Shown here piece after piece: positions 2,790 to 35,499 of a stretch of DNA of 37,425 nucleotides. A program made the translations under genes and the position numbers. This DNA comes from a virus. Lineage: Duplodnaviria > Heunggongvirae > Uroviricota > Caudoviricetes. Every line of letters begins with the position of its first letter. Position 1 is the first letter of the stretch. The stretch lies in the IMG/VR virus record IMGVR_UViG_2565956616_000008; one strand, written 5' to 3'. The notes under the pieces are model-generated. The model saw only the letters and a program-made list of their open reading frames with translations. It made no database searches and was not told the origin of the DNA.

Positions 2790-3140
2790 ATGAAACTACA
2801 GCGCAATTCTTCACAGCCGCGCTTCCGCAACGGTGCGGAACGCCACGCTAACCGTTTCGCTACCAGTGCATCACGTAGCAACTCTCGCTACAGCCTGAGC
2901 GAAACACACGCAACGCCGGATGGCTACCCAGTAAAACAAATCGGCGAGCATACCTGGCTGATTGAGAAAGCTGGAATTGTGGTCCACAAATGCCCACGCA
3001 ATCCGTTTACCGGAAACCGCATTTTTGCATTGAGCTGTGGCGACAATCAGTTTGGGCAGGATTTCACATTATACGAAGCACTTCGCACGGTTGATCGTCT
3101 GCTTCGCGGGCAAAGTTTTATTAAACAGGCTGATTTATAA
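2790..3140 (+). CDS. hypothetical early-region protein
   Basis: 116-aa ORF in the plus-strand early operon. Confidence 0.55.
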   Translation: MKLQRNSSQPRFRNGAERHANRFATSASRSNSRYSLSETHATPDGYPVKQIGEHTWLIEKAGIVVHKCPRNPFTGNRIFALSCGDNQFGQDFTLYEALRTVDRLLRGQSFIKQADL

Positions 3141-6190: not shown

Positions 6191-6306
6191 GTATGCCGTT
6201 CTCACAAAAAAACCGCTTGCCATGCCGCAATCAGTCAGGTTACATTTCCGCTGCACCTCATAAAACGGGTGCCGGGTTTCGCAGCCTGCTGACAACCAAA
6301 GCGCAC

Positions 6307-16033: not shown

Positions 16034-16187
16034 TGCTCCCCCTGAGTAATTACAGGAAGATTACCCGCGCGCGAAACTGTTCTCCTTAACCCCCTGTTCT
16101 GGCCGTTTTCTTACAACAAAAGCCCTTTGTATCAGCCTGTTACGCTTTGCCATCATGACTGAAGAACCAGTCAGAGGGGCAAAAACT

Positions 16188-17024
16188 ATGGCTAATGAAA
16201 AAAAGACATCCCGCAAAAAGTTTCGCGTGGCTGTCTCCGGATCAACTGTTGATGGCCGCGAAATCAGCCCGGTACATCTGCGTGAAGCCGCCGAGAACTT
16301 CAACCCGGATGTTTACGCTGCCCGCGTGAACGTTGAGCACTATCTCTCGCCATGCCCGTCAAGCGAATTTTCCGCAATGGGCGATGTCACCGCACTGAGT
16401 ACGGAAGACATTACGGAAGGTCCGCTGGCCGGACGTACTGCGCTGTATGCAGAAATCGAACCGACCGAGCGCATGAAGCAGCTTGTCGCGGACGGCAAGA
16501 AAATCTATTCCAGTATCGAACTGCACCCGCAGTTCTCCGTTAACGGGCGCGCCTATCTGGTCGGGCTGGCGATGACCGACACCCCGGCAAGCCTGGGCAC
16601 TGAGCGCCTGAAATTCACGGCACAGCAACGTCAGGCGGTGATGACGTTCAACAGTGTTCAGGGTGAAGCACCGCTCATTTCCGAAGCCATCGAGTCTGAA
16701 ATCATCGAAATGGCAGAACAACGCCAGGAAGAAGGCACCCAGTGGTTTAACCGCGTAATGGGGATTATTGGTCGTGGCCGCAAAGCGGATGACGCCAGTT
16801 TCTCCCGTATTCAGGAAGCGGTGGAAGGCGTCGCAACGTCACAGGCCGACATTATCGACCGTTTTAATGTGCTGGAAACCCGCCATCAGCAGGACCGCCA
16901 GAAAATCACGTCACTGACCACAGAGCTGACAGCACTGAAGGAAAAACTGCGCACGCAGGACGGCGATCCGCAGAACCGCTTCACCGCAACGGGCGCAGCC
17001 TCCGACCAGCTGGCTGACTTCTGA
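16188..17024 (+). CDS. O: Capsid scaffolding protein
   Basis: FRVAVSGSTVDGREIS near the N-terminus resembles P2 gpO as recalled; ATG at 16188 preceded by GAGGGG (track ORF begins at 16155). Confidence 0.85.
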   Translation: MANEKKTSRKKFRVAVSGSTVDGREISPVHLREAAENFNPDVYAARVNVEHYLSPCPSSEFSAMGDVTALSTEDITEGPLAGRTALYAEIEPTERMKQLVADGKKIYSSIELHPQFSVNGRAYLVGLAMTDTPASLGTERLKFTAQQRQAVMTFNSVQGEAPLISEAIESEIIEMAEQRQEEGTQWFNRVMGIIGRGRKADDASFSRIQEAVEGVATSQADIIDRFNVLETRHQQDRQKITSLTTELTALKEKLRTQDGDPQNRFTATGAASDQLADF

Positions 17025-20068: not shown

Positions 20069-20457
20069 GCAACACATTTAAATTCAGCAGCCGGAGCGAA
20101 AAGAATTTGCAGGGCGTAAATCCTGATCTGGTGAAAGTGACCCGACGGGCACTGGAAATCTCGGAAGTGGATTTTGGTATCACCGAAGGGTTGCGCAGCC
20201 GTTACCGCCAGAAGCAACTGGTGGCCACGGGTAAGAGCCAGACCATGAACAGCCGCCACCTTACGGGACATGCCGTGGATGTTGTGGCTTATATCGGCAG
20301 CCAGGTGTCATGGGAATGGCCGCTGTACGAAAAAATCGCAGCAGCATTCAGACAGGCCAGCCGGGAACTGAATATTCCGGTGGAATGGGGAGGCGACTGG
20401 AAGACTCTGAAAGACGGACCGCATTTTCAGTTACCACACGGAGCCTATCCGGCATGA
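20065..20457 (+). CDS. Endolysin, peptidase M15-like (zinc D,D- or L,D-peptidase fold)
   Basis: 130 aa; SRHLTGHAVDV and a later His (HFQL) fit the M15 zinc-peptidase motif; AAGGAG upstream; lysis-cassette position. Confidence 0.75.
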   Translation: MSNTFKFSSRSEKNLQGVNPDLVKVTRRALEISEVDFGITEGLRSRYRQKQLVATGKSQTMNSRHLTGHAVDVVAYIGSQVSWEWPLYEKIAAAFRQASRELNIPVEWGGDWKTLKDGPHFQLPHGAYPA

Positions 20458-20861
20458 AGCTCTGGCCCACGCTTGGCGTCGCTTTCCTTCTGATTGCCGG
20501 ATGGGGAACATCCATGCGTCTGTCGTGGTCGCTGGGCCGGGAGAACGCCAGAAACGAAGCGCAGGCCAGCACCCTGAAAAGTACCGCCGACACCCTGAAT
20601 ATCATCAGCGCCGGGGTACAGGATATGCAGCAGGTGCTGGCGCAACTCCGCGTGGAAAATCAGCAACGCAATCAGGACGGAGAGGTAAGACGTGAACAGC
20701 TACGCAACGATATTGCAAAAGATGAATGCGCCCACGCTTTGCCTGACGCTCGTTTTACTGACAGGCTGCGCAGGCACGCAGAACGCGCCACTGCCAGCGC
20801 CGTCAGTCCGGCTTATACCGCAGACGCTGACCATACCGGTAACGCCTCCCCCCTTCCCTGA
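20454..20861 (+). CDS. Rz-like i-spanin (LysB-like)
   Basis: ATG at 20454 overlaps the endolysin stop; N-terminal TM anchor (LGVAFLLIAGW) and a coiled-coil periplasmic part. Confidence 0.6.
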   Translation: MKLWPTLGVAFLLIAGWGTSMRLSWSLGRENARNEAQASTLKSTADTLNIISAGVQDMQQVLAQLRVENQQRNQDGEVRREQLRNDIAKDECAHALPDARFTDRLRRHAERATASAVSPAYTADADHTGNASPLP

Positions 20862-24444: not shown

Positions 24445-26772
24445 ATGAGTACCACAACACGAAAATTTAAAACCATTATCACTGATACTGGTGCCAAAAA
24501 ATTAGCTCAGGCAGCCGCGCCAGATGGTAATCCTGTCCGCCTGACTCACATGGCCGTGGGCGACGGTGGCGGCACGTTGCCCACACCAGACAGTAAGCAG
24601 ACCCGTCTGGTGCATGAGGTGTGGCGACATACTGTTAATCGCGTCATCCTGGACGCAACACATCAGAACCGCATTATTGCGGAGCTGGTTATTCCTCCTG
24701 AAACGGGCGGATTCTGGATCCGGGAAATTGGTGTATTTGATGAGCACGGCGATTTGATCGCGGTGGGCAATACTGCCGAAAGTTACAAGCCAGCCGTTGC
24801 CGAAGGATCCGGACGTGCACAAACATTTCGCACCATTCTGACCGTATCCAGCACTGCCACCGTGGCGCTTACCGTGGATAACACCATGGTTATGGCCACA
24901 GTGGATTACGTGAATGACAAACTGAAAGAACATGAACAGTCACGACGTCACCCGGACGCCTCGCTGACCGCAAAAGGCTTTGTTCAACTCAGTAGCGCCA
25001 CCAACAGCACGTCTGAAGCACTGGCCGCAACGCCGAAAGCGGTCAAGGCAGCCTATGACCTTGCTAACGGGAAATATACCGCACAGGACGCCACCACAGC
25101 GCGAAAAGGTCTTGTCCAGCTCAGTAGCGCCACAAACAGCGATTCTGAAACGCTTGCGGCAACGCCAAAGGCGGTAAAGGCAGCATATGACCTCGCTAAC
25201 GGGAAATATACCGCACAGGATGCCACCACAGCGCGAAAAGGTCTTGTCCAGCTCAGTAGCGCCACCAACAGTGATTCTGAAACGCTTGCGGCAACGCCAA
25301 AGGCGGTAAAGGCCGCGTATGACCTTGCTAACGGGAAATACACTGCACAGGATGCCACTACAGCGCGAAAAGGTCTTGTCCAGCTCAGTAGCGCCACCAA
25401 CAGTGATTCTGAAACGCTGGCCGCAACATCAAAAGCGGTGAAGTCTGCCTATGACAATGCTGAAAAACGTCTTAAGAAAGATCAGAACGGTGCGGATATT
25501 CCGGGAAAGGATACCTTCACGAAAAATATCGGTGCCTGTCGTGCTTATAGCGGCGCTTTGAGCACTGAAGCCGGAAACTGGACAACCGCTCAGTTTATTG
25601 AATGGCTGGATTCCCGTGGTGCATTTAATCATCCGTACTGGATGTGCAAAGGCTCATGGTCATATGCAAATAACAAAATCATTACGGATACCGGATGTGG
25701 TGATATCCACCTGGCTGGTTGTGTCGTCGAGGTCATGGGAACTAAATCTGCAATCACTATCCGAGTGACCACGCCGACAACATCAAGTGGTGGCGGTACA
25801 ACCAGCGCGCAATTCACTTACATTAATCATGGGGGCGGCCACTCCCCCGGCTGGCGTCGTGACTGGAATCGTCAGGGCGACTCAATGACCGGAACGATTA
25901 ATCAGGATGGCGGAAGCCAGAATGCCTATATGTCTACGGCCTTATGTTCAGGCACCAGAGGCGGCAAAAAATATCTCAGAAAGTTTCGTGGTGGAGAAGG
26001 AGACACTATCTGGCATGAAACAGTACAGGGCGGGGTAATTCGCTGGGCGACAGGAAACTATGACGCTCAGGAAGAATTATCACTCAGCTCCGCTTATGGT
26101 CTCCGTTCAAGAGGTGAGATTACATCACTCAGTGCTAATGGTCTGCGCATTGCTTATGGCAATTATGGATTCTTTATCAGGAATGATGGCGGCAGCACAT
26201 ATTTAATGCTGACGGCCTCTGGCGATAAATTTGGGACATGGAACGGCTTAAGACCGCTGACTATCAATAACGCCAATGGCGGAGTGTCAATGGGGCATGG
26301 CCTGAGTGTTACAGGTGATATTGTCTCAAGTACCAAAGTACGTGCCGGTAGCGGGAAAAAGTTCACGGTCAGCAGCGGCAATACATCCACGAAGGAAGCC
26401 GCATTCAATTTGTGGGGAAACGCAAGTCGTCCGGTGGTGGCTGAATTAGGTGATGATGCAGGCTGGCATTTTTACAGTCAGAGAAATACAGATAACAGCA
26501 TCACTTTTGCTGTTAACGGGCAGGTATCACCATCTAACTATGGCAACTTTGATTCACGCTATGTCCGGGATATTAGACTTGGTGGTGCGTCATCCTATAA
26601 ACCAGCAAATAACGGTACAACATGGACGCATCAGGCTCCATCTGGTTGCGCATATACCGGGATTATCGTTCAGGATACAGGCTCAAACTCTGCCGATAAT
26701 ATTGGTGGTGTTTATTACAGACCAATTCAAAAAAATATTAATGGTACATGGTATAACGTATCGAGTGTTTGA
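24445..26772 (+). CDS. H: Tail fibre protein
   Basis: 775 aa; conserved P2 gpH-type N-terminus (MSTTTRKFKTIITDTGAKKLAQAA...); repeat-containing middle and variable C-terminus. Confidence 0.9.
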   Translation: MSTTTRKFKTIITDTGAKKLAQAAAPDGNPVRLTHMAVGDGGGTLPTPDSKQTRLVHEVWRHTVNRVILDATHQNRIIAELVIPPETGGFWIREIGVFDEHGDLIAVGNTAESYKPAVAEGSGRAQTFRTILTVSSTATVALTVDNTMVMATVDYVNDKLKEHEQSRRHPDASLTAKGFVQLSSATNSTSEALAATPKAVKAAYDLANGKYTAQDATTARKGLVQLSSATNSDSETLAATPKAVKAAYDLANGKYTAQDATTARKGLVQLSSATNSDSETLAATPKAVKAAYDLANGKYTAQDATTARKGLVQLSSATNSDSETLAATSKAVKSAYDNAEKRLKKDQNGADIPGKDTFTKNIGACRAYSGALSTEAGNWTTAQFIEWLDSRGAFNHPYWMCKGSWSYANNKIITDTGCGDIHLAGCVVEVMGTKSAITIRVTTPTTSSGGGTTSAQFTYINHGGGHSPGWRRDWNRQGDSMTGTINQDGGSQNAYMSTALCSGTRGGKKYLRKFRGGEGDTIWHETVQGGVIRWATGNYDAQEELSLSSAYGLRSRGEITSLSANGLRIAYGNYGFFIRNDGGSTYLMLTASGDKFGTWNGLRPLTINNANGGVSMGHGLSVTGDIVSSTKVRAGSGKKFTVSSGNTSTKEAAFNLWGNASRPVVAELGDDAGWHFYSQRNTDNSITFAVNGQVSPSNYGNFDSRYVRDIRLGGASSYKPANNGTTWTHQAPSGCAYTGIIVQDTGSNSADNIGGVYYRPIQKNINGTWYNVSSV
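24973..25500 (+). repeat. Four in-frame tandem repeats of 132 bp (44 aa) inside the tail fibre gene
   Basis: Copies start at 24973, 25105, 25237 and 25369 (aa unit GLVQLSSATNSDSETLAATPKAVKAAYDLANGKYTAQDATTARK); near-identical DNA, last copy diverging. Confidence 0.85.
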
Positions 26773-26774
26773 TT

Positions 26775-27308
26775 ATGATGCATTTAAAAAATATAAAACC
26801 GGGCAATCCAAAAACAAAAGAACAGTACCTGTTAACTAAAAACTCCGGCGTTGTCTGGTTATTCGCTGAAGATGGTAAAAACTGGTATGAGGAACAAAAG
26901 AACTTTCAGCCAGACACCATAAAGATTGCATATGATGAAAATAATGTCATATGCGACGTGCAAACGGATGTAACTGCAATTTGCCCGGAAGGAAAAAGTG
27001 TTGTCGAGTTGCCTAATATTACAGCAAACCGACGCGCTGATATTTCAGGTAACTGGATGTTTAAAGATGGCTCAGTCATTAAACGTGTGTATACCGAAGA
27101 AGAGCAACGCTTGCAGGCTGAAAACCAGAAACAAAGGTTATTACAGCAGGCCAGAGAAAAAACGCAGTTCTGGCAGACCCAGCTTGCATTAGGGATTATC
27201 AGTGATTCAGATAAGCAACAACTGATGCGCTGGATGCGGTACGTGCAACAAGTTGAGACCACTGATACCACTGAATTACCCGTTACGTTCCCTGATCAAC
27301 CAGAATAA
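26775..27308 (+). CDS. G: Tail fibre assembly chaperone
   Basis: ORF 26769..27308 immediately after H; first ATG at 26775. Confidence 0.75.
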   Translation: MMHLKNIKPGNPKTKEQYLLTKNSGVVWLFAEDGKNWYEEQKNFQPDTIKIAYDENNVICDVQTDVTAICPEGKSVVELPNITANRRADISGNWMFKDGSVIKRVYTEEEQRLQAENQKQRLLQQAREKTQFWQTQLALGIISDSDKQQLMRWMRYVQQVETTDTTELPVTFPDQPE

Positions 27309-27312
27309 ACGA

Positions 27313-27345
27313 AAGGCCCGAATATCGGGCCTTATCGTTATTTCT
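27313..27345. terminator. Bidirectional terminator between convergent G and U
   Basis: GGCCCGA...TCGGGCC hairpin flanked by A-rich sequence on one side and T-rich on the other. Confidence 0.6.
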
Positions 27346-27376
27346 GTTTATCTAACTATTTGTGATTTGCGTTAAA

Positions 27377-27871
27377 TCAGAACAGTCCCTTAACAGAACT
27401 GACCGCACTGTTAAGGGATGACGCCACCTTATCTTTGAAGCCGGACAGCATATCGCTGAACGATGAGGATTGCAGGCGCTCCCGCAAATCCTCATCACAG
27501 CGTTCAAGGGTCAGTGAAAATTCTATCTTTTTCGCCTTACCGTAGCGATCAAACTCGGAACGGATCGTATTCGTTCCGGTCAGGACATACATGCCGTAAA
27601 TCTGCCCGACGCCATCAATCAGAGGCCAGGGCCGTCCTGTATACGCCTGCGTGGTCAGCAGCGACAGCGACATTTCGCCACCTGTAATTTCAGGATAAAG
27701 CACACCAGAAAGAACGATGCGATCATCACCTGCACCGATATACTGCCAGCTTGCTGAACGGTTAACGCGTTCATTTTTCACATGCCGCCAGCTTTTGTTT
27801 TGCTGTAACTGCTGATGCGGCAGCGTGCGCAGCTCAAAAACAAACATGCCGTAGATCATCATCATGGCCAT
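27377..27871 (-). CDS. U: Tail protein U
   Basis: 164 aa; P2 gpU-like (MAMMMIYGMFVFELRTLPHQ...). Confidence 0.8.
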   Translation of the reverse strand: MAMMMIYGMFVFELRTLPHQQLQQNKSWRHVKNERVNRSASWQYIGAGDDRIVLSGVLYPEITGGEMSLSLLTTQAYTGRPWPLIDGVGQIYGMYVLTGTNTIRSEFDRYGKAKKIEFSLTLERCDEDLRERLQSSSFSDMLSGFKDKVASSLNSAVSSVKGLF

Positions 27872-27877
27872 GTCTCC

Positions 27878-30685
27878 TCAATCTTTATCGTAAAAACTGC
27901 CACGCCCGGCACGGGCGCGCCGTTCCATTTCTGCCCTGACCATTTCACCGACCAGTTTCGCCAGTTCGCGGGGATTCTGTGTAACAACGTTATGCAGATG
28001 AACATGAATTTCACCGCCAAATCCGGAGGCAACAGGCTCCCGGTTACGGGAAGTTGCAGGAACTGATGCCACTGGCGATCGTATGGCCTCCGCCACCGGG
28101 CGGGAGCTGGCCGCAACAACAGGGACCAGCGCCGGAGGCAGCGGAGCCGGAACCACGGGTGTGATATTAATTGCGGGGTCAGGCTTACTGACCTGCGCAA
28201 TCTTCCGCTCCTGCCACTCCCCACGAACAGCAAGTGCGTGGGGCAGGTTCTTAAAGACAATATCGCCGGGGCCAATGCGTTTTTTCGTCTCATCAACCAG
28301 CTTACCTGTGTTATCAGCAATTTTGCTGAGTCTGCGTAGCGTACCGGTATTGCTGTCTGTGAGCGGTTTGTTGTCTTTGGGCTTATCACCTCCGGTGCCA
28401 TTGCCATTTTCCACAGGCTTCGGCGGATTGATTTTCGCCAGGTCCCCCTGAAGCAAGGCAACCTTGTCCTGAAGAATGGCCGCACGCTGTGCGTCTTCGA
28501 TTTTCTTGCGCGCCCTTTCCGCTTCATCCGGAAGCACACCGAGCTTTTCAAGTATCCACGCCAGCGTATCCAGCAACATTTTTGCAGGTGTCAGAACAAG
28601 TTGTAACGCACCGCCAAGAACGTTACCGAATATCTCGCCAGCACTGGTACATTTATCCAGCGTTTCCTTGCTGGACTCCATCGGTGACAGCAGCGATTTA
28701 AACCAGTTAAACACCTGGCTGATCCCGCTTCCGATTGCGTCAAAAACAGGACCAAACCGTTCAAAGGTTTCGCGCAACGGGGTCAGCCTTTCCATAATCC
28801 CGCTGAACACTCCGGCAAAAAATGCCCTGATGGGATCCCAGTATTTCCAGATAAGAACGGCAGCTCCGGCAAGCGCAGCCACAATAAGACCAACCGGACT
28901 GAACAACGCCCCGATAGCGCCTCCCAGTAAAGAAACAGAACCCGTCACCATTCCCCACAGCGCAGGCAACACCCTGACGACATTCATTGACCGGGTCAGG
29001 ATGTCAAAACCAAGACGCAGGGTGGCCAGCTTCCCGTAAAGCACCCCAATAACCAGCGACAACGAGCCAATCGTTGCAGTCATTGCCAGCAACGCACCGC
29101 CTGCTATCAGTAGCTGGCGCGTCAGTACCGGATGGGCCTGCGCCAGCGAGGTGATTTTTTCAAGCACCCGTGTGAACCACTGCGTGACAAAACGCAGCGG
29201 ACCGTCAACCAGATCACTGATGCGAATACGAAGACCTTCCCATGCGCTGTCGAGATTTTTCAGGTCCCCATCAAGATTATCGGCCATTACTTTTGCAACG
29301 CGATCGGCCTCTCCCCTTGCCCCCTGCAATTCTCTGGTCAGTTTTTGCAGCTCTCCTGAACCAGCCGCCGCAACAAGCGTCTGCAAACCAACGAACGCCT
29401 CTTCTCCGGCGATGTCCTTGAAGAAGGAGACCTGGTCCACCTGTCCGTATTTTTGTGTCGCCTTATAGAGATCAAGCAGCACATCCTCCATCGGGCGCAT
29501 TTTGCCTCTGGCGTCAGCAACTGACACCCCAAGCTCTTTCAGCGCATCAGCCGCAGCTTTTGGCGGTGATGCAAGGCGGGACAGACTTGCGCGCATGGCC
29601 GTACCAGCATCGCTTCCACGAAGACCATTATTGGCAAGCATCCCGGCCATGGCTGCCGCTTCTTCAAGACTGATACCAAGTTTTGCGGCAACCGGACCGG
29701 TATACTTCATGGTTTCGCCCAGCGCGCGTAAATCAGTATTGGTCCGGGTGAATGCCGCTGTCAGCGTATCGCCAACCCGGTCCATTTGATCGGCTGTCAG
29801 GTTGAACTGTGTGAGGATATTGGAGCCTATATCAGCCGTCTCGCCGAGTTCGACGCCACCTGCCAGCGCCATATTAAGAACACCGGGCAATGCGGCCTGA
29901 ATGGCCTGCGGAGTAAAACCAGCCATTGCCAGAAAGCTCTGCCCACTGGCGGCATCACTCGCAGTAAACTGTGTTTCAGAGCCAAGTTTTAACGCCTGCT
30001 CACGCAGCGCCTTAAACTGCGGGCTGTTTTTGTCGATTCGCGTCAGTGCCTGAACGCGGGACATCTCTTTGCCGAACCCGATCGCAGGCTGCAAAAAACG
30101 CCCGGCAGCATAGCCGCCCGCCGCTGCCGCACCAATTGCCAGCGCACCACCTGTTTTCAGTTTTCCCGCTGTTTCCTGCGCGCGCGAATACCGCTCACGC
30201 GCCCGTGTTACACGCGCAAGCGCCTGCCGTTCGCGTTCAAGCTGGTTGTTGTACTGTTCGGTGCGTCTGATGGCCTGCTGGATGGTGTTATCGCTGCCTG
30301 TCAGGGAAATGCCGTGGCGTTTCAGCTCTCCGCCAAGCTCCCGCATTTTCTGAATTTCCCGTGTGCGCGATTCATTCAGGCGTTCAAGCCGGGTGCTTAA
30401 CTGCTGCATCAGCTTTTGTTGTTTTTCGCTGAGCACTGTACCCGTGCGTTGTAACTGATTAAGGGCGTTAAGCTGGCGTCGTGCTTTCACGATGCCCGCA
30501 TCCGCTTTACTGACAGCGTCACGGGCGCGCTCAAATGATCGCGCCTGACGCTCGAGATTTTTGATCGCCCCCTGCGTTCGCTGGATGGAGTCACCAAACT
30601 GCCCCATCAGGCGGCGGGCGTTTTCGGCAGGCCGGGTCAGCCTGTCAACGGCGCTGAAAGCGACCCGGATATCAAGAGTCTTCAT
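27878..30685 (-). CDS. T: Tail tape measure protein
   Basis: Long (about 935 aa) Ala-rich ORF with coiled-coil N-terminal half and hydrophobic middle; exact start uncertain (ATG 30685 or 30694; track gives a GTG at 30721). Confidence 0.85.
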   Translation of the reverse strand: MKTLDIRVAFSAVDRLTRPAENARRLMGQFGDSIQRTQGAIKNLERQARSFERARDAVSKADAGIVKARRQLNALNQLQRTGTVLSEKQQKLMQQLSTRLERLNESRTREIQKMRELGGELKRHGISLTGSDNTIQQAIRRTEQYNNQLERERQALARVTRARERYSRAQETAGKLKTGGALAIGAAAAGGYAAGRFLQPAIGFGKEMSRVQALTRIDKNSPQFKALREQALKLGSETQFTASDAASGQSFLAMAGFTPQAIQAALPGVLNMALAGGVELGETADIGSNILTQFNLTADQMDRVGDTLTAAFTRTNTDLRALGETMKYTGPVAAKLGISLEEAAAMAGMLANNGLRGSDAGTAMRASLSRLASPPKAAADALKELGVSVADARGKMRPMEDVLLDLYKATQKYGQVDQVSFFKDIAGEEAFVGLQTLVAAAGSGELQKLTRELQGARGEADRVAKVMADNLDGDLKNLDSAWEGLRIRISDLVDGPLRFVTQWFTRVLEKITSLAQAHPVLTRQLLIAGGALLAMTATIGSLSLVIGVLYGKLATLRLGFDILTRSMNVVRVLPALWGMVTGSVSLLGGAIGALFSPVGLIVAALAGAAVLIWKYWDPIRAFFAGVFSGIMERLTPLRETFERFGPVFDAIGSGISQVFNWFKSLLSPMESSKETLDKCTSAGEIFGNVLGGALQLVLTPAKMLLDTLAWILEKLGVLPDEAERARKKIEDAQRAAILQDKVALLQGDLAKINPPKPVENGNGTGGDKPKDNKPLTDSNTGTLRRLSKIADNTGKLVDETKKRIGPGDIVFKNLPHALAVRGEWQERKIAQVSKPDPAINITPVVPAPLPPALVPVVAASSRPVAEAIRSPVASVPATSRNREPVASGFGGEIHVHLHNVVTQNPRELAKLVGEMVRAEMERRARAGRGSFYDKD

Positions 30686-30908
30686 TGTCTGCATTCCCGC
30701 TACGAAGTGCCGCCCGCTCACGCCAGCTAACCACTTCGCCGGGCGTCATCATGAAGATTTCGGCGGGCGACCAGTTAAAAATGGCGGCAATATCCGCCAC
30801 CAGATCTTCGATGTGCTCAAAGCACACCAGGGTGATTACGCTGCCGTCTCCTGCACGCTCTTCGCGCCAGAGTCTGGCTCGCTCATAAAATTTACAGCCA
30901 CAGCGCAC
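30672..30908 (-). CDS. E' extension frame of the tail assembly chaperone (E+E' product by -1 frameshift)
   Basis: ORF in the -1 frame overlapping the 3' end of E (30836..30908), as for P2 E/E'; candidate slippery heptamer A_AAT_TTT in the overlap. Confidence 0.55.
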   Translation of the reverse strand: MRCGCKFYERARLWREERAGDGSVITLVCFEHIEDLVADIAAIFNWSPAEIFMMTPGEVVSWRERAALRSGNADNEDS

Positions 30909-31210
30909 AACTGAATAAAATCGCGTGACGACATTTTTTTAATCATCACTTCATCCAGTCGTGGCGAGGTCACGCGAGGCAACAGCGTGAACATGGTATC
31001 CGCTTTCAGATTCAGCACATCAGACAGCGACAGACCACGCAGGGATCCAGCCTGCTCAATAGCCCCGGTGATCTCCACATACGTGATTTTTTCGCCACCA
31101 CGCTCAATTGGTCGGGTCAGTTTTACGCCACGTTCGACAGCCATATCCTCAACTGCCGTCACATTATCCGCCACGGTGTTATTCCGGGTTTCAGTATCGA
31201 TGTCTTTCAT
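30836..31210 (-). CDS. E: Tail assembly chaperone E
   Basis: 124 aa; position between tube and tape measure genes; AAGGAG upstream. Confidence 0.8.
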   Translation of the reverse strand: MKDIDTETRNNTVADNVTAVEDMAVERGVKLTRPIERGGEKITYVEITGAIEQAGSLRGLSLSDVLNLKADTMFTLLPRVTSPRLDEVMIKKMSSRDFIQLCAVAVNFMSEPDSGAKSVQETAA

Positions 31211-31265
31211 CTGTTGTCTCCTTTTCAGTCAGAGGCGACGCACTGCGCCGCCAGCATATTACTTA

Positions 31266-31778
31266 TCAGCCAAGCCCAAGCGCGGAACGGATGCGATCGG
31301 GCACAATGTCCTTGCCGTCCTTCCGGTAAATGAAGTTCAGCAGGTCAATCTCCCACAACGGGCGATCGTTAACACTCAGCTTGTAGTAGGTGTTTTTAAT
31401 GGCGTAAGTGTGTGATGTGGCTTCGCCCTGTTTGGCTTCCCCCATATCAATTTCCGTCACACGTCCGCGCATTTCGACTTCATACAGGTCGCTTTCTGCA
31501 TCGGTGTAGTATTCACCCGCAAAACGCAGCAGCGTGCCGTCAATCGTGCCGCCATACTTAAGGAACAGCTCACGAACTGCGCCCCCCATGACAAAGCTCG
31601 CATCAAGCGCGGAGTCGTCCAGACCGAGATCAATACTTACCGCACCCATCATGCCACCACCCCGGTAGCTGTCGGTTTTGCGCGTCAGCTTAGGCAGAGT
31701 GACGGACGTCACCTTACCCACTTCGTTTTCACCATCCACAAACAGCGTAAAAAAGCGAAGATGTTTTGGCACAGCCAT
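31266..31778 (-). CDS. FII: Tail tube protein
   Basis: 170 aa; follows the sheath gene with overlapping stop/start. Confidence 0.85.
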   Translation of the reverse strand: MAVPKHLRFFTLFVDGENEVGKVTSVTLPKLTRKTDSYRGGGMMGAVSIDLGLDDSALDASFVMGGAVRELFLKYGGTIDGTLLRFAGEYYTDAESDLYEVEMRGRVTEIDMGEAKQGEATSHTYAIKNTYYKLSVNDRPLWEIDLLNFIYRKDGKDIVPDRIRSALGLG

Positions 31779-32962
31779 CAGGCACCTCCCAGCACCGCAA
31801 ATGCGGGTTCAAAGTATTCATCAGTAAACGTCTGGTAAAGCTCCATGTCTTCCAGTGGCGGAACGGGCGTATATTTGTAGCGAATACGCACACGTCCCTG
31901 ACGTAAATCCGTGGTGCTGTTATCCACCACGTCATACCAGCACTCCGCGCCAATCAGTTTCCCGGCAGTCACCAGTGAATCCAGTTTTGCCCTGATGGCA
32001 CTGATAACATCCTTCACATTCGCAGGCGTCAGTGGACTGTCGATGGTTTCAAACTGCGCTTCCGCAATTGAATCAGCCAGCACCTGTGCGGTTCGGGTAT
32101 ACACCTCAAAGATGTAGGCGTTCGTTTCCGGTGTGCGGTTACCCCAGAAGCGGAACCCGTTGCGACGAATAATGGTCGTGATTTCTTTGTTGTTGAGGCT
32201 GTTGGCATCGCTGTCTTCGGCCTGCAACGACCAGAACACATGCCTGGACATTCCCAGCACATTTTTAACCGGAACGTTGGACAGCGATTTGTGCCAGCCC
32301 TGCTCATGGTCAATGTACGCACGAAGGCCGCACGCATAAGCAGGCGCGGGGAACGTTTCGTTTTTGCCACTTTTCGGGTTGTAGGCGATGAAGTCAGGCC
32401 ATAAGAGCATCACCTCACGTTCGTTGAATTTCTGGCGGTAGGTAATCGCCTCAGCCATCGTGTTACAACCATGACATGTGGCATACACAAACGCGCGCAG
32501 TTTACCTGCAATCACGCACAGGGATTTTGTTACCGCCTCCGTGTCCAGCTCCGGCGCGGCCAGAATACGCGGACGGTATCCGATGCTTTCATCCTGCTCT
32601 GCAACAAGCAGCGCATACATCCCCGTATAGCTGCCGTCATCCTCAGAACCACCGATAACCAGTTGATCCTGCGTCTTTCCGTCTTCTTCTTTGTGTTCAG
32701 CCACGCGAACGACGATCACCTTTGTGCTCACCTGGTCTGCGATGGCCTTAAGCGCACGATAAAGCGTCCCCGTTGTTCCGCATTTTCCCAGCACGTCATT
32801 GACGCGGGTCAGCAGTGTGGGCTTGTTCAGCGGGAACAGCTCCGCGTCCGCATCATCCGCCGTTGCCACGATACCGATAACGCTGGAATCAACATCGTTA
32901 ATCGCTGTTACCAGGTCGGTATTTTCCGTAACACGGGCACCATGAAAACGAGTTTCACTCAT
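31778..32962 (-). CDS. FI: Tail sheath protein
   Basis: 394 aa; segments FPLNKP, RAF, WPDF, GWHK.LSN, RR.GFRFWGNRT match P2 gpFI as recalled; AAGGGG upstream. Confidence 0.9.
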   Translation of the reverse strand: MSETRFHGARVTENTDLVTAINDVDSSVIGIVATADDADAELFPLNKPTLLTRVNDVLGKCGTTGTLYRALKAIADQVSTKVIVVRVAEHKEEDGKTQDQLVIGGSEDDGSYTGMYALLVAEQDESIGYRPRILAAPELDTEAVTKSLCVIAGKLRAFVYATCHGCNTMAEAITYRQKFNEREVMLLWPDFIAYNPKSGKNETFPAPAYACGLRAYIDHEQGWHKSLSNVPVKNVLGMSRHVFWSLQAEDSDANSLNNKEITTIIRRNGFRFWGNRTPETNAYIFEVYTRTAQVLADSIAEAQFETIDSPLTPANVKDVISAIRAKLDSLVTAGKLIGAECWYDVVDNSTTDLRQGRVRIRYKYTPVPPLEDMELYQTFTDEYFEPAFAVLGGA

Positions 32963-33119
32963 AGCTTCAGCCCCTTGTATCCGTTAAATGATTCGGCAAC
33001 AATCATCACCCACCACGCGCGTAATCTCACCCCTGCGCCGTTCTCCCGACCCGGCGACAACAAAAAGCAGTAACCCCCTCCGCACACACATGCGACCATG
33101 CCGCACAGGGAGGGAGCAG

Positions 33120-34229
33120 ATGACCGACACCACCATGCAATTGCTCAGCCAGGGCACAGACCCCGTAAAAATGCCGGATTTTGATATTCTCGCGGAGGGT
33201 AAAACGCTGTCCGGCGTGGCAGAGCGCCTGATGAGCCTGTCGCTGACCGACAACCGGGGATTTGAGGCAGACCAGCTCACCATCACGCTGGATGATGCGG
33301 ATGGTCAGTTGCAGCTACCGCCACGGGGCGCGCGCCTGACGGTTCTCATTGGCTGGAAAGGCGAACCGCTGACAGAAAAAGGGTCTTACATTGTTGATGA
33401 AATCGCTCACGAAGGACCGCCGGACAGGCTGACTGTTTCAGCCAGAAGCGCAGATTTTCGGGATGAATTTAACGTTAAACGTGAGGTGTCCTGGCATGAT
33501 GTGACCGTTGAGCGCGTGGTATCCGCCATCGCTCATCGGTACGGTCTGAAACCGCAAATCAGCGAAATGCTGATGGATATCGAAATCGACCACGCCGACC
33601 AGACCGAAGAAAGCGACATGTCCTTTCTTACGCGCATGGCGGAAATGCTGGGCGCAATCACCACGGTAAAAAGCGGTAATCTGTTATTCATTATGCCAGG
33701 CGGTGGCGTGAACGCACAGGGCCAGCCGTTGCCCTCGTTCGCCATTACACGCAGCAGCGGCGATCGCCATCAGTTCCGTATTGCTGACCGCGAGGCGTAT
33801 ACGGGGGTACGCGCCTACTGGCTTGATCTTAATTACGGGAAAAAGAAAAAAGTCAGCGTGAAACGCCGTAAACCGCCAAAACCCAAAAAGGAGAAAAGCA
33901 GCAGCCGTGAAGGTGATTATATGGAAGGCGCGGAAGGCAATGTGTTTGTGTTACGCAAGACTTATCAGAACGAGCAGGCAGCAAGACGCGCAGCGGCGGC
34001 AAAGTGGCAGCAGCTACAACGCGGAGCCGCATCATTCTCCATCACGCTGGCGCGTGGACGTGCAGAACTCTACCCTGAAATGCATGGCACGGTGACAGGC
34101 TTTAAAAGTGACATCGACAATCAGGACTGGATTATTGCAAAAGCCGAGCACACCATTGATAACAGCGGCTTTACCACGCAGCTTGAGCTTGAAGCAAAAA
34201 TCCCAGAATGGATAGCAGAAACAGAGTAA
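33120..34229 (+). CDS. D: Late control / tail protein D
   Basis: P2 gpD family features (MQLLSQ...LSLTDNRG.EADQL.I.LDD.DG); ATG at 33120 preceded by GGGAGGGAG (track ORF starts further upstream). Confidence 0.85.
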   Translation: MTDTTMQLLSQGTDPVKMPDFDILAEGKTLSGVAERLMSLSLTDNRGFEADQLTITLDDADGQLQLPPRGARLTVLIGWKGEPLTEKGSYIVDEIAHEGPPDRLTVSARSADFRDEFNVKREVSWHDVTVERVVSAIAHRYGLKPQISEMLMDIEIDHADQTEESDMSFLTRMAEMLGAITTVKSGNLLFIMPGGGVNAQGQPLPSFAITRSSGDRHQFRIADREAYTGVRAYWLDLNYGKKKKVSVKRRKPPKPKKEKSSSREGDYMEGAEGNVFVLRKTYQNEQAARRAAAAKWQQLQRGAASFSITLARGRAELYPEMHGTVTGFKSDIDNQDWIIAKAEHTIDNSGFTTQLELEAKIPEWIAETE

Positions 34230-34423
34230 ACAACTTAGATGCATTAGCCCTGACATTTGCTAACGCGCCTACAGCAAGAATCATAATCAATCTGACAGCC
34301 TACCCGGTGTCAAAATCAGAAGTACCTTACATTAGAATATGTTAATTTGTAGCAAACAAATTTACACACAAATAATTACTGCTGAAATAGCGCCCCATAA
34401 ATGCCATGTCAGAGGACCATGTT

Positions 34424-35089
34424 ATGAATATGCAAATTTTTATTGGACCAACAGCCACAGTTGCCGCGGTCTGCCTTGCTGCATATTTTGCTTTACGAAA
34501 TGAGCGTAAAAAGAAAGCGCTTGAGATTAGAACAACTCAACTAGATCGAATATCTGAGCTAGTAAGCAGAGCATCTACCAATTTGATGCAATATACAGGT
34601 ACTCTTGCCTCTATACTGGAAGCGCACACCAAAGAAAATTATCTACCAGACCACAAATTTAACATTAATGAAATTAGCAAATGGAAAAATGATCTCGATA
34701 AGAGAGAAGATTGGGCTATTGATATACAGCAACTAAGAACATGCCAGCACAACCTGGAGTTTCATCGTGAAAAAGAATGGGCTGAATGGGAAAAAATAAT
34801 TCCACCATTACTTGATAAAATTAACCAATTTTTTCTCATATCCAAGCCGGGGCAACCTGTTACGCTTATAAATGGTCAAAATAAAACAGTCGATGAACTG
34901 ATTGCTTTCTCAATATACTTACAACAACAAACAGAAGAAATTAAAGCGGTACGTAAGCTGCTACTTTCTCAAATGAGAGAAGAATTCATCGAGTTAACTA
35001 GCTTTGAACCTGTCACAATATTTAGCTTATTAAAATCAATAAAGAAAAGTGTCCTGCAATTTTTCTGTATCAGTGCTCTTAAAAATTGA
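34424..35089 (+). CDS. AT-rich cargo gene: membrane-anchored hypothetical protein
   Basis: 221 aa from ATG 34424 (AGAGGA 7 nt upstream); N-terminal TM helix (IFIGPTATVAAVCLAAYFAL) then a charged helical domain; AT-rich relative to flanking phage DNA; own terminator downstream. Confidence 0.55.
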   Translation: MNMQIFIGPTATVAAVCLAAYFALRNERKKKALEIRTTQLDRISELVSRASTNLMQYTGTLASILEAHTKENYLPDHKFNINEISKWKNDLDKREDWAIDIQQLRTCQHNLEFHREKEWAEWEKIIPPLLDKINQFFLISKPGQPVTLINGQNKTVDELIAFSIYLQQQTEEIKAVRKLLLSQMREEFIELTSFEPVTIFSLLKSIKKSVLQFFCISALKN

Positions 35090-35106
35090 CGCTCTGTTAC
35101 AAGCAA

Positions 35107-35134
35107 CCCCAGTGTTAAACTGGGGTTATTCTTG
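35107..35134 (+). terminator. rho-independent terminator after the cargo gene
   Basis: CCCCAGT-gttaa-ACTGGGG hairpin followed by TTATTCTT. Confidence 0.6.
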
Positions 35135-35238
35135 CTAAGAGACCTTTATACGGCATAAGTAAACAAAGAGAACTATCAGTTGGAGTCTGAGCAAGTTCAG
35201 CCTAAACTAGCGACAGTACCACGTTAAGGGAGGTCGCT

Positions 35239-35499
35239 ATGTTCCGTTGTCCGCTTTGTGGCGCATCTGCCCGTATCCGCACCAGTCGTCCGGAAAATGA
35301 TTCAAACACCGTGCGGCAAAAGTATTACCAGTGCAACAACCTGGAATGCGGCGTATGCTTCTCAACACTGGAAGCTTTCCATAAATTCACATCGAAACAC
35401 GCCTCCGGCATCCACTCTTCAGAAGGTATCCCGTGGCATGAGCTGCCAGCTTCACACAGGGGAAACAATCAGATGAGCTTGCCTTTACCTCAGAATTAA
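35239..35499 (+). CDS. ogr: Ogr/Delta-type zinc-finger late-gene activator
   Basis: 86 aa; CPLCGASARIRTSR...YYQCNNLECGVCF four-Cys pattern as in the P2 Ogr family; GGGAGG upstream. Confidence 0.85.
   Translation: MFRCPLCGASARIRTSRPENDSNTVRQKYYQCNNLECGVCFSTLEAFHKFTSKHASGIHSSEGIPWHELPASHRGNNQMSLPLPQN

Follow-up and report, generated by a model that had tools for sequence, protein, structure and literature searches.

The stretch of DNA analysed here (hereafter the window, 37,425 nucleotides) very probably comes from a P88-like temperate phage of the genus Xuanwuvirus, family Peduoviridae, in which a block of about 5.7 kb running from the tail sheath gene FI to gene U was inverted long ago and became fixed, and now probably borders a pair of divergent late promoters. 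According to this explanation a single ancient inversion relative to the gene order of P2 and 186 would have included the sheath promoter, would have reached fixation throughout a large clade of prophages of the Enterobacterales and would have brought the Ogr-dependent sheath promoter back to back with gene D. One dyad-symmetric site at 33040-33061 would then serve two divergent late promoters in the manner of P2 pP/pO, the leftward one transcribing FI-FII-E/E'-T-U and the rightward one transcribing D. A two-way hairpin at 27301-27346 would terminate transcription both from the sheath promoter, coming leftward, and from the V-to-G operon, coming rightward.

The gene content of the region was established from the open reading frames and their Pfam matches. 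On the plus strand gene G (26769..27308), encoding a tail fibre assembly protein (Caudo_TAP, E 2.5e-33), closes the V-to-G tail operon, which reads rightward, and is convergent with gene U. The block itself lies on the minus strand between 27377 and 32962. It contains the genes for the tail protein U (27377..27871; Phage_P2_GpU, E 1.6e-37), which shares 43-46% identity with U of P2 and 186, the tape measure protein T (27878..30685; PhageMin_Tail, E 1.6e-56), the tail assembly chaperone E (30836..31210), with a weak Phage_TAC_7 match under the Pfam cut-off, together with its overlapping chaperone frame E' (30672..30908), the tail tube protein FII (31266..31778; Phage_tube, E 7.5e-47) and the tail sheath protein FI (31778..32962; Phage_sheath_1, Gp18_domIII_N and Phage_sheath_1C). 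The longest open reading frame of T extends to 30721, and the ATG at 30685 agrees with the annotation of P88, where the gene has equal length; pieces corresponding to E and E' are likewise annotated at equivalent positions in P88. Gene D (33120..34229; Phage_GPD), encoding the baseplate hub or late control D protein, returns to the plus strand. Homologues of the sheath, tube, chaperone, tape measure, U and D genes are thus all present and in the P2-like internal order, and the strands assigned to them by the first-pass annotation were confirmed.

Downstream of D on the plus strand, the gene at 35239..35499 encodes a zinc-finger late activator of the Ogr/Delta type with 86 amino acids (Ogr_Delta, E 5.1e-14; transcriptional regulator in PHROG), and this protein presumably binds the site in the spacer between FI and D. 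The gap between D and ogr differs in length among relatives; in the window it contains an uncharacterised cargo gene of about 1 kb, lacking in P88_4B11, whose open reading frame (34406-35089) had no match in Pfam, PHROG or PADLOC.

The length of the spacer depends on where D begins. The start of D is the ATG at 33120 and not the in-frame ATG upstream at 32988, because P88 annotates the equivalent start and because close relatives differ in length by 1 nt and 4 nt within 32963-33119, which would break the upstream reading frame. The 157-bp spacer between FI and D (32963..33119), across which the two genes had been said to diverge, is therefore correct, and the same 157 bp separates them in P88-like phages.

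At the other end of the block, the two-way intrinsic terminator that the first-pass annotation had placed between the convergent genes G and U was supported by a terminator scan and by RNA folding. It consists of a GC-rich core hairpin at 27313-27333, within an extended stem at 27301..27346, with T-rich tails on both strands, although the tails, ATCGTTATTT on the plus strand and TCGTTTATTC on the minus strand, are only moderately T-rich. The predicted folding energies were -26.4 kcal/mol (plus strand, z = -7.6) and -26.5 kcal/mol (minus strand, z = -6.5), and none of 200 shuffled sequences matched them. Judging from these folds the terminator is a real one. At the equivalent convergent junction of P88 the two-way hairpin is a different one.

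The window showed 96.7% identity to P88 over 82% of positions 1-25000 and 93.8% identity over 81% of positions 26000-34500. Virus taxonomy rules set the genus threshold at approximately 70% nucleotide identity across the genome length, and these values place the window within Xuanwuvirus. The members of this genus (P88, P88_4B11, 500465-2, 520873 and Citrobacter phage PhiSM) presented 94-96% identity over the block and D, and in the record of PhiSM both are matched contiguously at 94% identity. The annotated records of P88 and P88_4B11 have the order found in the window, with H and G on the plus strand, U, T, E', E, FII and FI on the minus strand and D on the plus strand. The convergent order is also found in the record of SEN4, so that the arrangement is not unusual, nor is it new, since it is already visible in these three reference records. 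The first-pass annotation had named the occurrence of this order in P2-like reference genomes as an observation that would count against its reading, and the three records provide it. Moreover P88 has been induced as a phage (PMC5285337), and therefore the inverted arrangement works.

The order is widely distributed. An intact FI-D junction was found in 1358 of 5426 complete E. coli genomes (approximately 25%), and the junction was in one piece in 1360 of 1382 E. coli records; the exact G-U junction was intact in 28 genomes. In IMG/VR the block was inverted in 80 of 80 loci, as it was in all 29 close loci. Orientation followed the divergence of the D protein: every species-representative locus with a D protein of at least 61% identity was inverted, as were 134 of 134 loci at or above this value, distributed among more than 20 genera of Enterobacterales, and all classifiable species-representative loci in which D did not exceed 54% identity were canonical. 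The records of P2, 186, Fels-2, phiCTX and a Klebsiella Kapieceevirus all have the canonical co-directional order; those of P2 and 186 confirmed that FI-FII-E-T-U-D read in the same direction as V-W-J-I-H-G. Trees of D and of FI were built by neighbour joining, without bootstrap and rooted with a single outgroup, and in them the 134 inverted loci formed one clade containing none of the 33 canonical loci. As the inverted loci form one clade in both trees, the simplest account would be that the inversion arose once, long ago. The proposal that the FI-to-U block is inverted with respect to P2 and 186, D keeping its orientation, is supported.

Other explanations for the arrangement were weighed against a single fixed inversion. 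The first-pass annotation had left open whether the order was specific to a lineage or an artefact in which the 5.7-kb block was placed in the wrong orientation during assembly. The latter has nothing in its favour other than the departure from the order of P2 and 186. It was refuted by independent assemblies, as the right junction is intact in the 1358 complete E. coli genomes and the exact left junction in 28, and as the same order occurs in the records of P88, P88_4B11 and SEN4 and throughout the 134 loci of the clade; its probability is practically nil. The order is thus specific to a lineage, and that lineage is large and old. The block could also be an active segment that flips by site-specific recombination, for example by an invertase of the Gin/Cin/Hin type, so that the window shows one of two states. 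A DNA invertase gene does lie directly to the left of U in P88 and P88_4B11, and a preprint describes an Entero_P88 prophage in which DNA inverts reversibly, but that inversion takes place between copies of a tail fibre gene. In P88 the invertase belongs with an alternative tail fibre segment; P88 and P88_4B11 carry both between G and U, whereas the window has neither. In addition, a search of the block for inverted repeats recovered the terminator hairpin only and no repeats pairing the junctions, the close relatives have one orientation only (the 29 IMG/VR loci and 1360 of the 1382 E. coli records), and flipping would part D from the conserved promoter region beside it. With no flanking inverted repeats, no invertase and no mixed orientations the switch model was rejected, and we consider it extremely improbable.

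Replacement of the module, in which a sheath-to-U cassette from another phage was inserted in reverse, is unlikely, although it is compatible with the mosaic tail regions of P2-like phages and with the left junction being a region of variable tail fibre cassettes, where the exact G-U junction is kept in far fewer genomes than the FI-D junction (28 against 1358). However, identity to P2 is alike in the block (46% for FI, 42% for FII and 46% for U) and in its flanks (49% for D and 54% for J), and the trees of FI and D both recover the same inverted clade. As the distances of block and flanks are alike and the two trees agree, a shared history fits better than a foreign origin. Finally, the inverted order might be ancestral and the co-directional order of P2 and 186 derived. 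The direction of change hangs on the rooting, which is given by one distant outgroup record (phiCTX), yet the order is canonical in every lineage examined outside the clade (P2, 186, Fels-2, Kapieceevirus, phiCTX and the canonical species-representative loci) and the inverted loci are a single nested clade. In Burkholderia phage KS5, moreover, D and U are listed as neighbours on one strand (gene table in PMC3091744), which also counts against this possibility; it appears very improbable.

The suggestion that the promoter region of the sheath operon had been moved next to D gained support, since a search for late-promoter elements within 32963..33119 found a predicted Ogr/B-type activator site at 33040-33061, matching the pattern GTTCT-N12-ACAAC exactly. 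The site is conserved across the inverted clade, where the FI-D spacer keeps the consensus GTTGT-N12-ACAAC, containing TGT-N12-ACA. The left half-site differs by one base from the canonical TGT, being TCT both in the window and in its close relatives. This explains why a strict search of the window for TGT-N12-ACA missed the site; that search returned three matches, fewer than expected by chance and none of them in a late spacer. When the whole window was scanned with a matrix trained on distant relatives only, the FI-D site ranked first (26.0 bits) and a site between the divergent genes P (terminase) and O (scaffold), at 16096..16117, ranked second (23.3 bits), against a maximum of 17.2 in shuffled sequences. 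A scan of the FI-D spacer for the sigma-70 consensus found nothing. The activator-dependent late promoters of P2 have no -35 element, and this result was therefore expected.

On the FI side, AT..TC columns at 33-38 nt from the edge of the site are conserved among 46 non-redundant relatives, and in the window they correspond to GATGAT (33002..33007, minus strand), the putative -10 hexamer of pF, the promoter that would read leftward into the sheath gene. On the D side the mirror position, again 33-38 nt from the edge, is occupied by the hexamer at 33094-33099, part of a predicted extended -10 (TGcGACCAT, 33091..33099) whose g..A..at columns are partly conserved, so that conservation here is only moderate. 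These hexamers put the predicted transcription starts at approximately 32995 on the minus strand and 33106 on the plus strand, some 55-56 nt from the centre of the site. The P-O site has the same geometry, with the hexamers TAATCT (minus strand, 16063-16058) and CATCAT (plus strand, 16151-16156). The start of O was moved to 16188 following an IMG/VR scan seeded with the O protein, which returned close relatives only (at least 81% identity) and settled the start codon.

We infer from these features that the FI-D spacer is a second two-way late promoter, directing FI to the left and D to the right, that its site is bound by the Ogr-like protein of the phage and that D has a promoter of its own; this is a model drawn from the geometry and conservation of the sequence. 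It is also rather probable, if less firmly so than the inversion itself, that the inversion created this second Ogr promoter of the pP/pO style detached D from the sheath operon and left D, the cargo slot and ogr as a separate rightward late unit, and that it distinguishes a large subclade of Peduoviridae, not remarked on before, comprising Xuanwuvirus, Senquatrovirus and relatives in more than 20 genera of Enterobacterales. No mention of the inversion or of gene orientation was found in the open-access papers on P88, PhiSM and SEN4, the corresponding terms in a paper on Burkholderia P2-like phages refer to unrelated features only, and no paper describing the inverted arrangement was found in the open-access literature.

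These results have consequences for annotation. When a P88-like prophage departs from the textbook order of P2 and 186, neither a misassembly nor a recent rearrangement should be suspected. As a clean shared derived character, the inversion splits a subclade extending across the Enterobacterales from the rest of the P2 family, and it can aid both classification and the annotation of prophages. Moreover the dyad symmetry of the activator site may be what lets a phage survive the inversion of an operon, as a displaced D could be expressed again from the other face of the site.

The tail operon of P2 and 186 (promoters pF and pJ) has the same seven gene families as the window, arranged internally in the same way, and is likewise accompanied by a zinc-finger activator of the Ogr/B type, and the distance from the activator site to the ATG of FI is similar (72 nt in P2 and 78 nt in the window), whereas the tail proteins share only 33-50% identity. 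In P2 and 186 the FI-to-D operon is co-directional with V-to-G, while in the window FI-to-U is inverted and D stands apart; co-direction characterises the type phages and not the whole family, given that P88 and SEN4 are Peduoviridae with the inverted order. The closest parallel to the proposed promoter pair is pP/pO of P2 (p12/pV of 186), where one dyad site lies between divergent late genes, as it does between FI and D. The P2 record places the starts of pP and pO at 3016 and 3127, with the site between them at 3057-3087, and the starts predicted at both FI/D and P/O of the window are likewise approximately 110 nt apart, some 55 nt on each side of the site. P2 and 186 have this architecture at the head gene cluster only, whereas the window is predicted to carry a second copy at the tail genes. 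Reversed DNA in the tail region is also known from the G segment of Mu, the C segments of P1 and P7 and the tail fibre segments of P88 and Fels-2, and in P88 a related invertase lies beside the block. However, these segments have short inverted crossover sites and flip reversibly, swapping the ends of tail fibres, while the block in the window has no flanking repeats, has no invertase gene beside it between G and U and keeps one fixed orientation in all relatives.

The tail genes U, T, E, E', FII and FI lie on the minus strand between G and D, and the gene calls of the first-pass annotation were borne out by Pfam scans and by the ORFs in all six frames of the window. The plus strand carries the tail fibre gene H (24445-26772), G (26769-27308), D (from 33120) and, after D, an Ogr/Delta zinc-finger gene (35239-35499). 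The minus strand carries U (27377-27871), T (27878-30685), E (30836-31210) with the overlapping E' frame (30672-30908), FII (31266-31778) and FI (31778-32962). For T, whose longest ORF begins with a GTG at 30721, the ATG at 30685 is the most likely start, since T then has the same length as in the P88 annotation. D starts at the ATG at 33120, the equivalent of which is annotated in P88. An in-frame ATG upstream, at 32988, was discarded, since length differences of 1 and 4 nt separate close relatives within 32963-33119 and would disrupt a coding region. With this annotation and these indels behind the D start, the 157-bp FI-D spacer first proposed stands. For the scaffold gene O, whose longest ORF begins at 16155, the most likely start is the ATG at 16188: this ATG aligns with Met1 of P2 gpO, and 1-nt indels of relatives in the A-run 16178-16182 break the upstream frame.

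The annotated records of P2 (NC_001895) and 186 (NC_001317) place FI, FII, E, E', T, U and D after V, W, J, I, H and G, all on one strand, so the block is truly flipped relative to these phages. The canonical order is also that of Fels-2, Klebsiella phage ST11-OXA48phi15.3 (Kapieceevirus) and Pseudomonas phiCTX. The window itself belongs to the P88-like phages: 82% of its first 25 kb aligns with P88 at 96.7% identity, and the block with D matches P88, P88_4B11, 500465-2, 520873 and Citrobacter PhiSM at 94-96%. P88 and P88_4B11 (both Xuanwuvirus) have the strands of the window, with H and G on plus, U, T, E', E, FII and FI on minus and D on plus, and Salmonella phage SEN4 (Senquatrovirus) has the same inverted order with a D protein only 63% identical. 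P88 was induced as a phage (PMC5285337) and PhiSM, whose record matches the block and D contiguously, is described as a functional temperate phage (PMC6456863). Of 5426 complete E. coli genomes, 1358 have an intact match to a 901-bp probe spanning the FI-D junction, in most cases at 95-99% identity. The first-pass annotation had left the choice between a real lineage-specific arrangement and an assembly artefact; the reference records and the E. coli genomes decide for the former, and the suspicion that the order is unusual falls with the convergent order of P88, P88_4B11 and SEN4. The inverted order is genus-typical for P88-like phages and already present in public reference records, although no remark on it was found in the open-access literature. 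What is added here is small, namely the clade-wide distribution of the inversion and a putative second two-way promoter. In two P88-like records, NC_049344.1 (520873) and NC_049341.1 (503458), an IS100-family element (transposase and IstB helper) divides the match to the block and D in two.

Searches were seeded with an alignment of the D proteins of the window, P2 and 186, and the recovered loci were classed by local tblastn with the proteins of the window. All 80 IMG/VR loci were inverted, with D identity from 100% down to 64%. Among species-representative genomes, all loci whose D is at least 61% identical were inverted and all classifiable loci at 54% or less were canonical. The genomes with inverted loci include those of Salmonella, Citrobacter, Enterobacter, Klebsiella, Kosakonia, Trabulsiella, Pantoea, Erwinia, Pectobacterium, Brenneria, Symbiopectobacterium, Serratia, Edwardsiella, Hafnia, Rouxiella, Yersinia aleksiciae, Xenorhabdus, Photorhabdus, Providencia and Morganella. 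A P88-like prophage with D 98% identical to that of the window was also found in NZ_JBQPOM010000071.1, labelled Vagococcus sp. WN89Y; this Gram-positive label probably reflects contamination or a mislabelled assembly. In the D and FI trees the 134 inverted loci formed one clade that included none of the 33 canonical loci. The simplest reading is that the block was inverted once, in the common ancestor of the clade, from an ancestral P2 order; this is well supported but not proven because these neighbour-joining trees are without bootstrap and rooted on one outgroup (phiCTX).

Between the convergent G and U there is a hairpin (core 27313-27333, extended stem 27301-27346) with folding energies of -26.4 (plus strand) and -26.5 kcal/mol (minus strand) and T-rich tails on both strands; none of 200 shuffles folded equally well. 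The corresponding two-way hairpin of P88 is a different one, and the exact G-U junction of the window is found in only 28 complete E. coli genomes, this junction being variable because of the adjoining alternative tail fibre segment. P88, P88_4B11 and Fels-2 carry an alternative tail fibre/assembly gene pair and a DNA invertase after G. Neither is present at 27309-27376 of the window, the counterpart of 3828-5976 in P88, and the tail fibre of this phage thus has only one, fixed end. An invertase adjoins U in P88, and a preprint describes reversible inversion in an Entero_P88 prophage, which might suggest that the block itself is an invertible switch. However, that inversion is at the tail fibre gene, and the P88 invertase goes with the neighbouring alternative fibre segment. 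No evidence for a switch was found: no inverted repeats pair the two block junctions, the G-U junction of the window is without an invertase gene, and close relatives show one orientation only, both in the IMG/VR loci and at the E. coli FI-D junctions. None of the defining features of the invertase-driven class was found in the block, which is better regarded as a fixed arrangement.

On the other side of D, the distance to ogr varies from ~1.1 to 5.2 kb among relatives, which suggests that this gap is an insertion hotspot. In the window the gap (34230-35238) holds a plus-strand cargo ORF (34406-35089) of 227 aa, with GC of ~0.40 and a hydrophobic N-terminus; the ORF is closely preceded by promoter-like matches (34092-34135) and followed by a terminator-like hairpin (35105-35127). 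Annotated 'hypothetical protein', it had no Pfam, PHROG or PADLOC match, and it is present in 58 of the 5426 E. coli genomes, including EPEC E2348/69.

The first-pass annotation had singled out 32963-33119 for late-promoter elements, and a conserved activator-type site is indeed found there. A strict search for TGT-N12-ACA gave no match in this spacer. Aligned FI-D spacers of diverged relatives conserve GTTGT-N12-ACAAC(AAA), which contains that motif, and the window and its close relatives have GTTCT-N12-ACAAC (33040-33061). In our own reading of the P2 and 186 records, the annotated activator and B-protein sites are TGT-N12-CCA. The GTTCT-N12-ACAAC variant of the FI-D spacer is also present in the window between the divergent genes P and O (16096-16117). 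When a position matrix was built on 34 non-redundant sites, all from distant relatives (D below 90% identity), the FI-D site (26.0 bits) and the P-O site (23.3 bits) ranked first and second in the whole window, against a mean of 11.6 and a maximum of 17.2 bits in shuffles. Two other matches, an exact GTTCT-N12-ACAAC on the minus strand inside the tape measure gene (28600-28621, 12.9 bits) and one on the plus strand inside an early-region ORF (6273-6298, 17.9 bits), are probably due to chance, as they score no more than slightly above the shuffles. A near-copy of the FI-D site, spacer included, is read on the minus strand at 20525-20546, inside the Rz-like spanin gene (20310-20861): GTTCTCCCGGCCCAGCGACCAC versus GTTCTCCCGACCCGGCGACAAC, with 16.1 bits, within the shuffle range. 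About 30 nt downstream, the plus strand has a -10-like element, TGAAAAGT. The overlap of S and V in this phage leaves no room for a P2-style pV promoter, and the candidate site might drive transcription of the tail genes R, S and V-to-G.

In 46 non-redundant FI/D spacers anchored on the activator site, -10-like hexamers lie 33-38 nt from both of its edges; in the window these are GATGAT leftward (33007 to 33002, minus strand) and TGcGACCAT rightward (33091-33099, plus strand). The P/O spacer has the same spacing, with TAATCT leftward (16063 to 16058, minus strand) and CATCAT rightward (16151-16156, plus strand), a fit that depends on moving the O start from 16155 to 16188. From this spacing, starts are predicted ~55 nt to each side of either site centre. 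The inversion would have brought pF and its activator site beside D, and this site may act in both directions, on pF leftward (start near 32995) and on a D promoter rightward (start near 33106). The site, its conservation and its spacing are observed; activator binding, the two starts and their activator dependence are predictions from sequence. In the P2 record, the pP/pO starts (3016 and 3127) flank a site at 3057-3087, which is the layout predicted in the window, and the FI/D promoter would be a second occurrence of the known pP/pO type.
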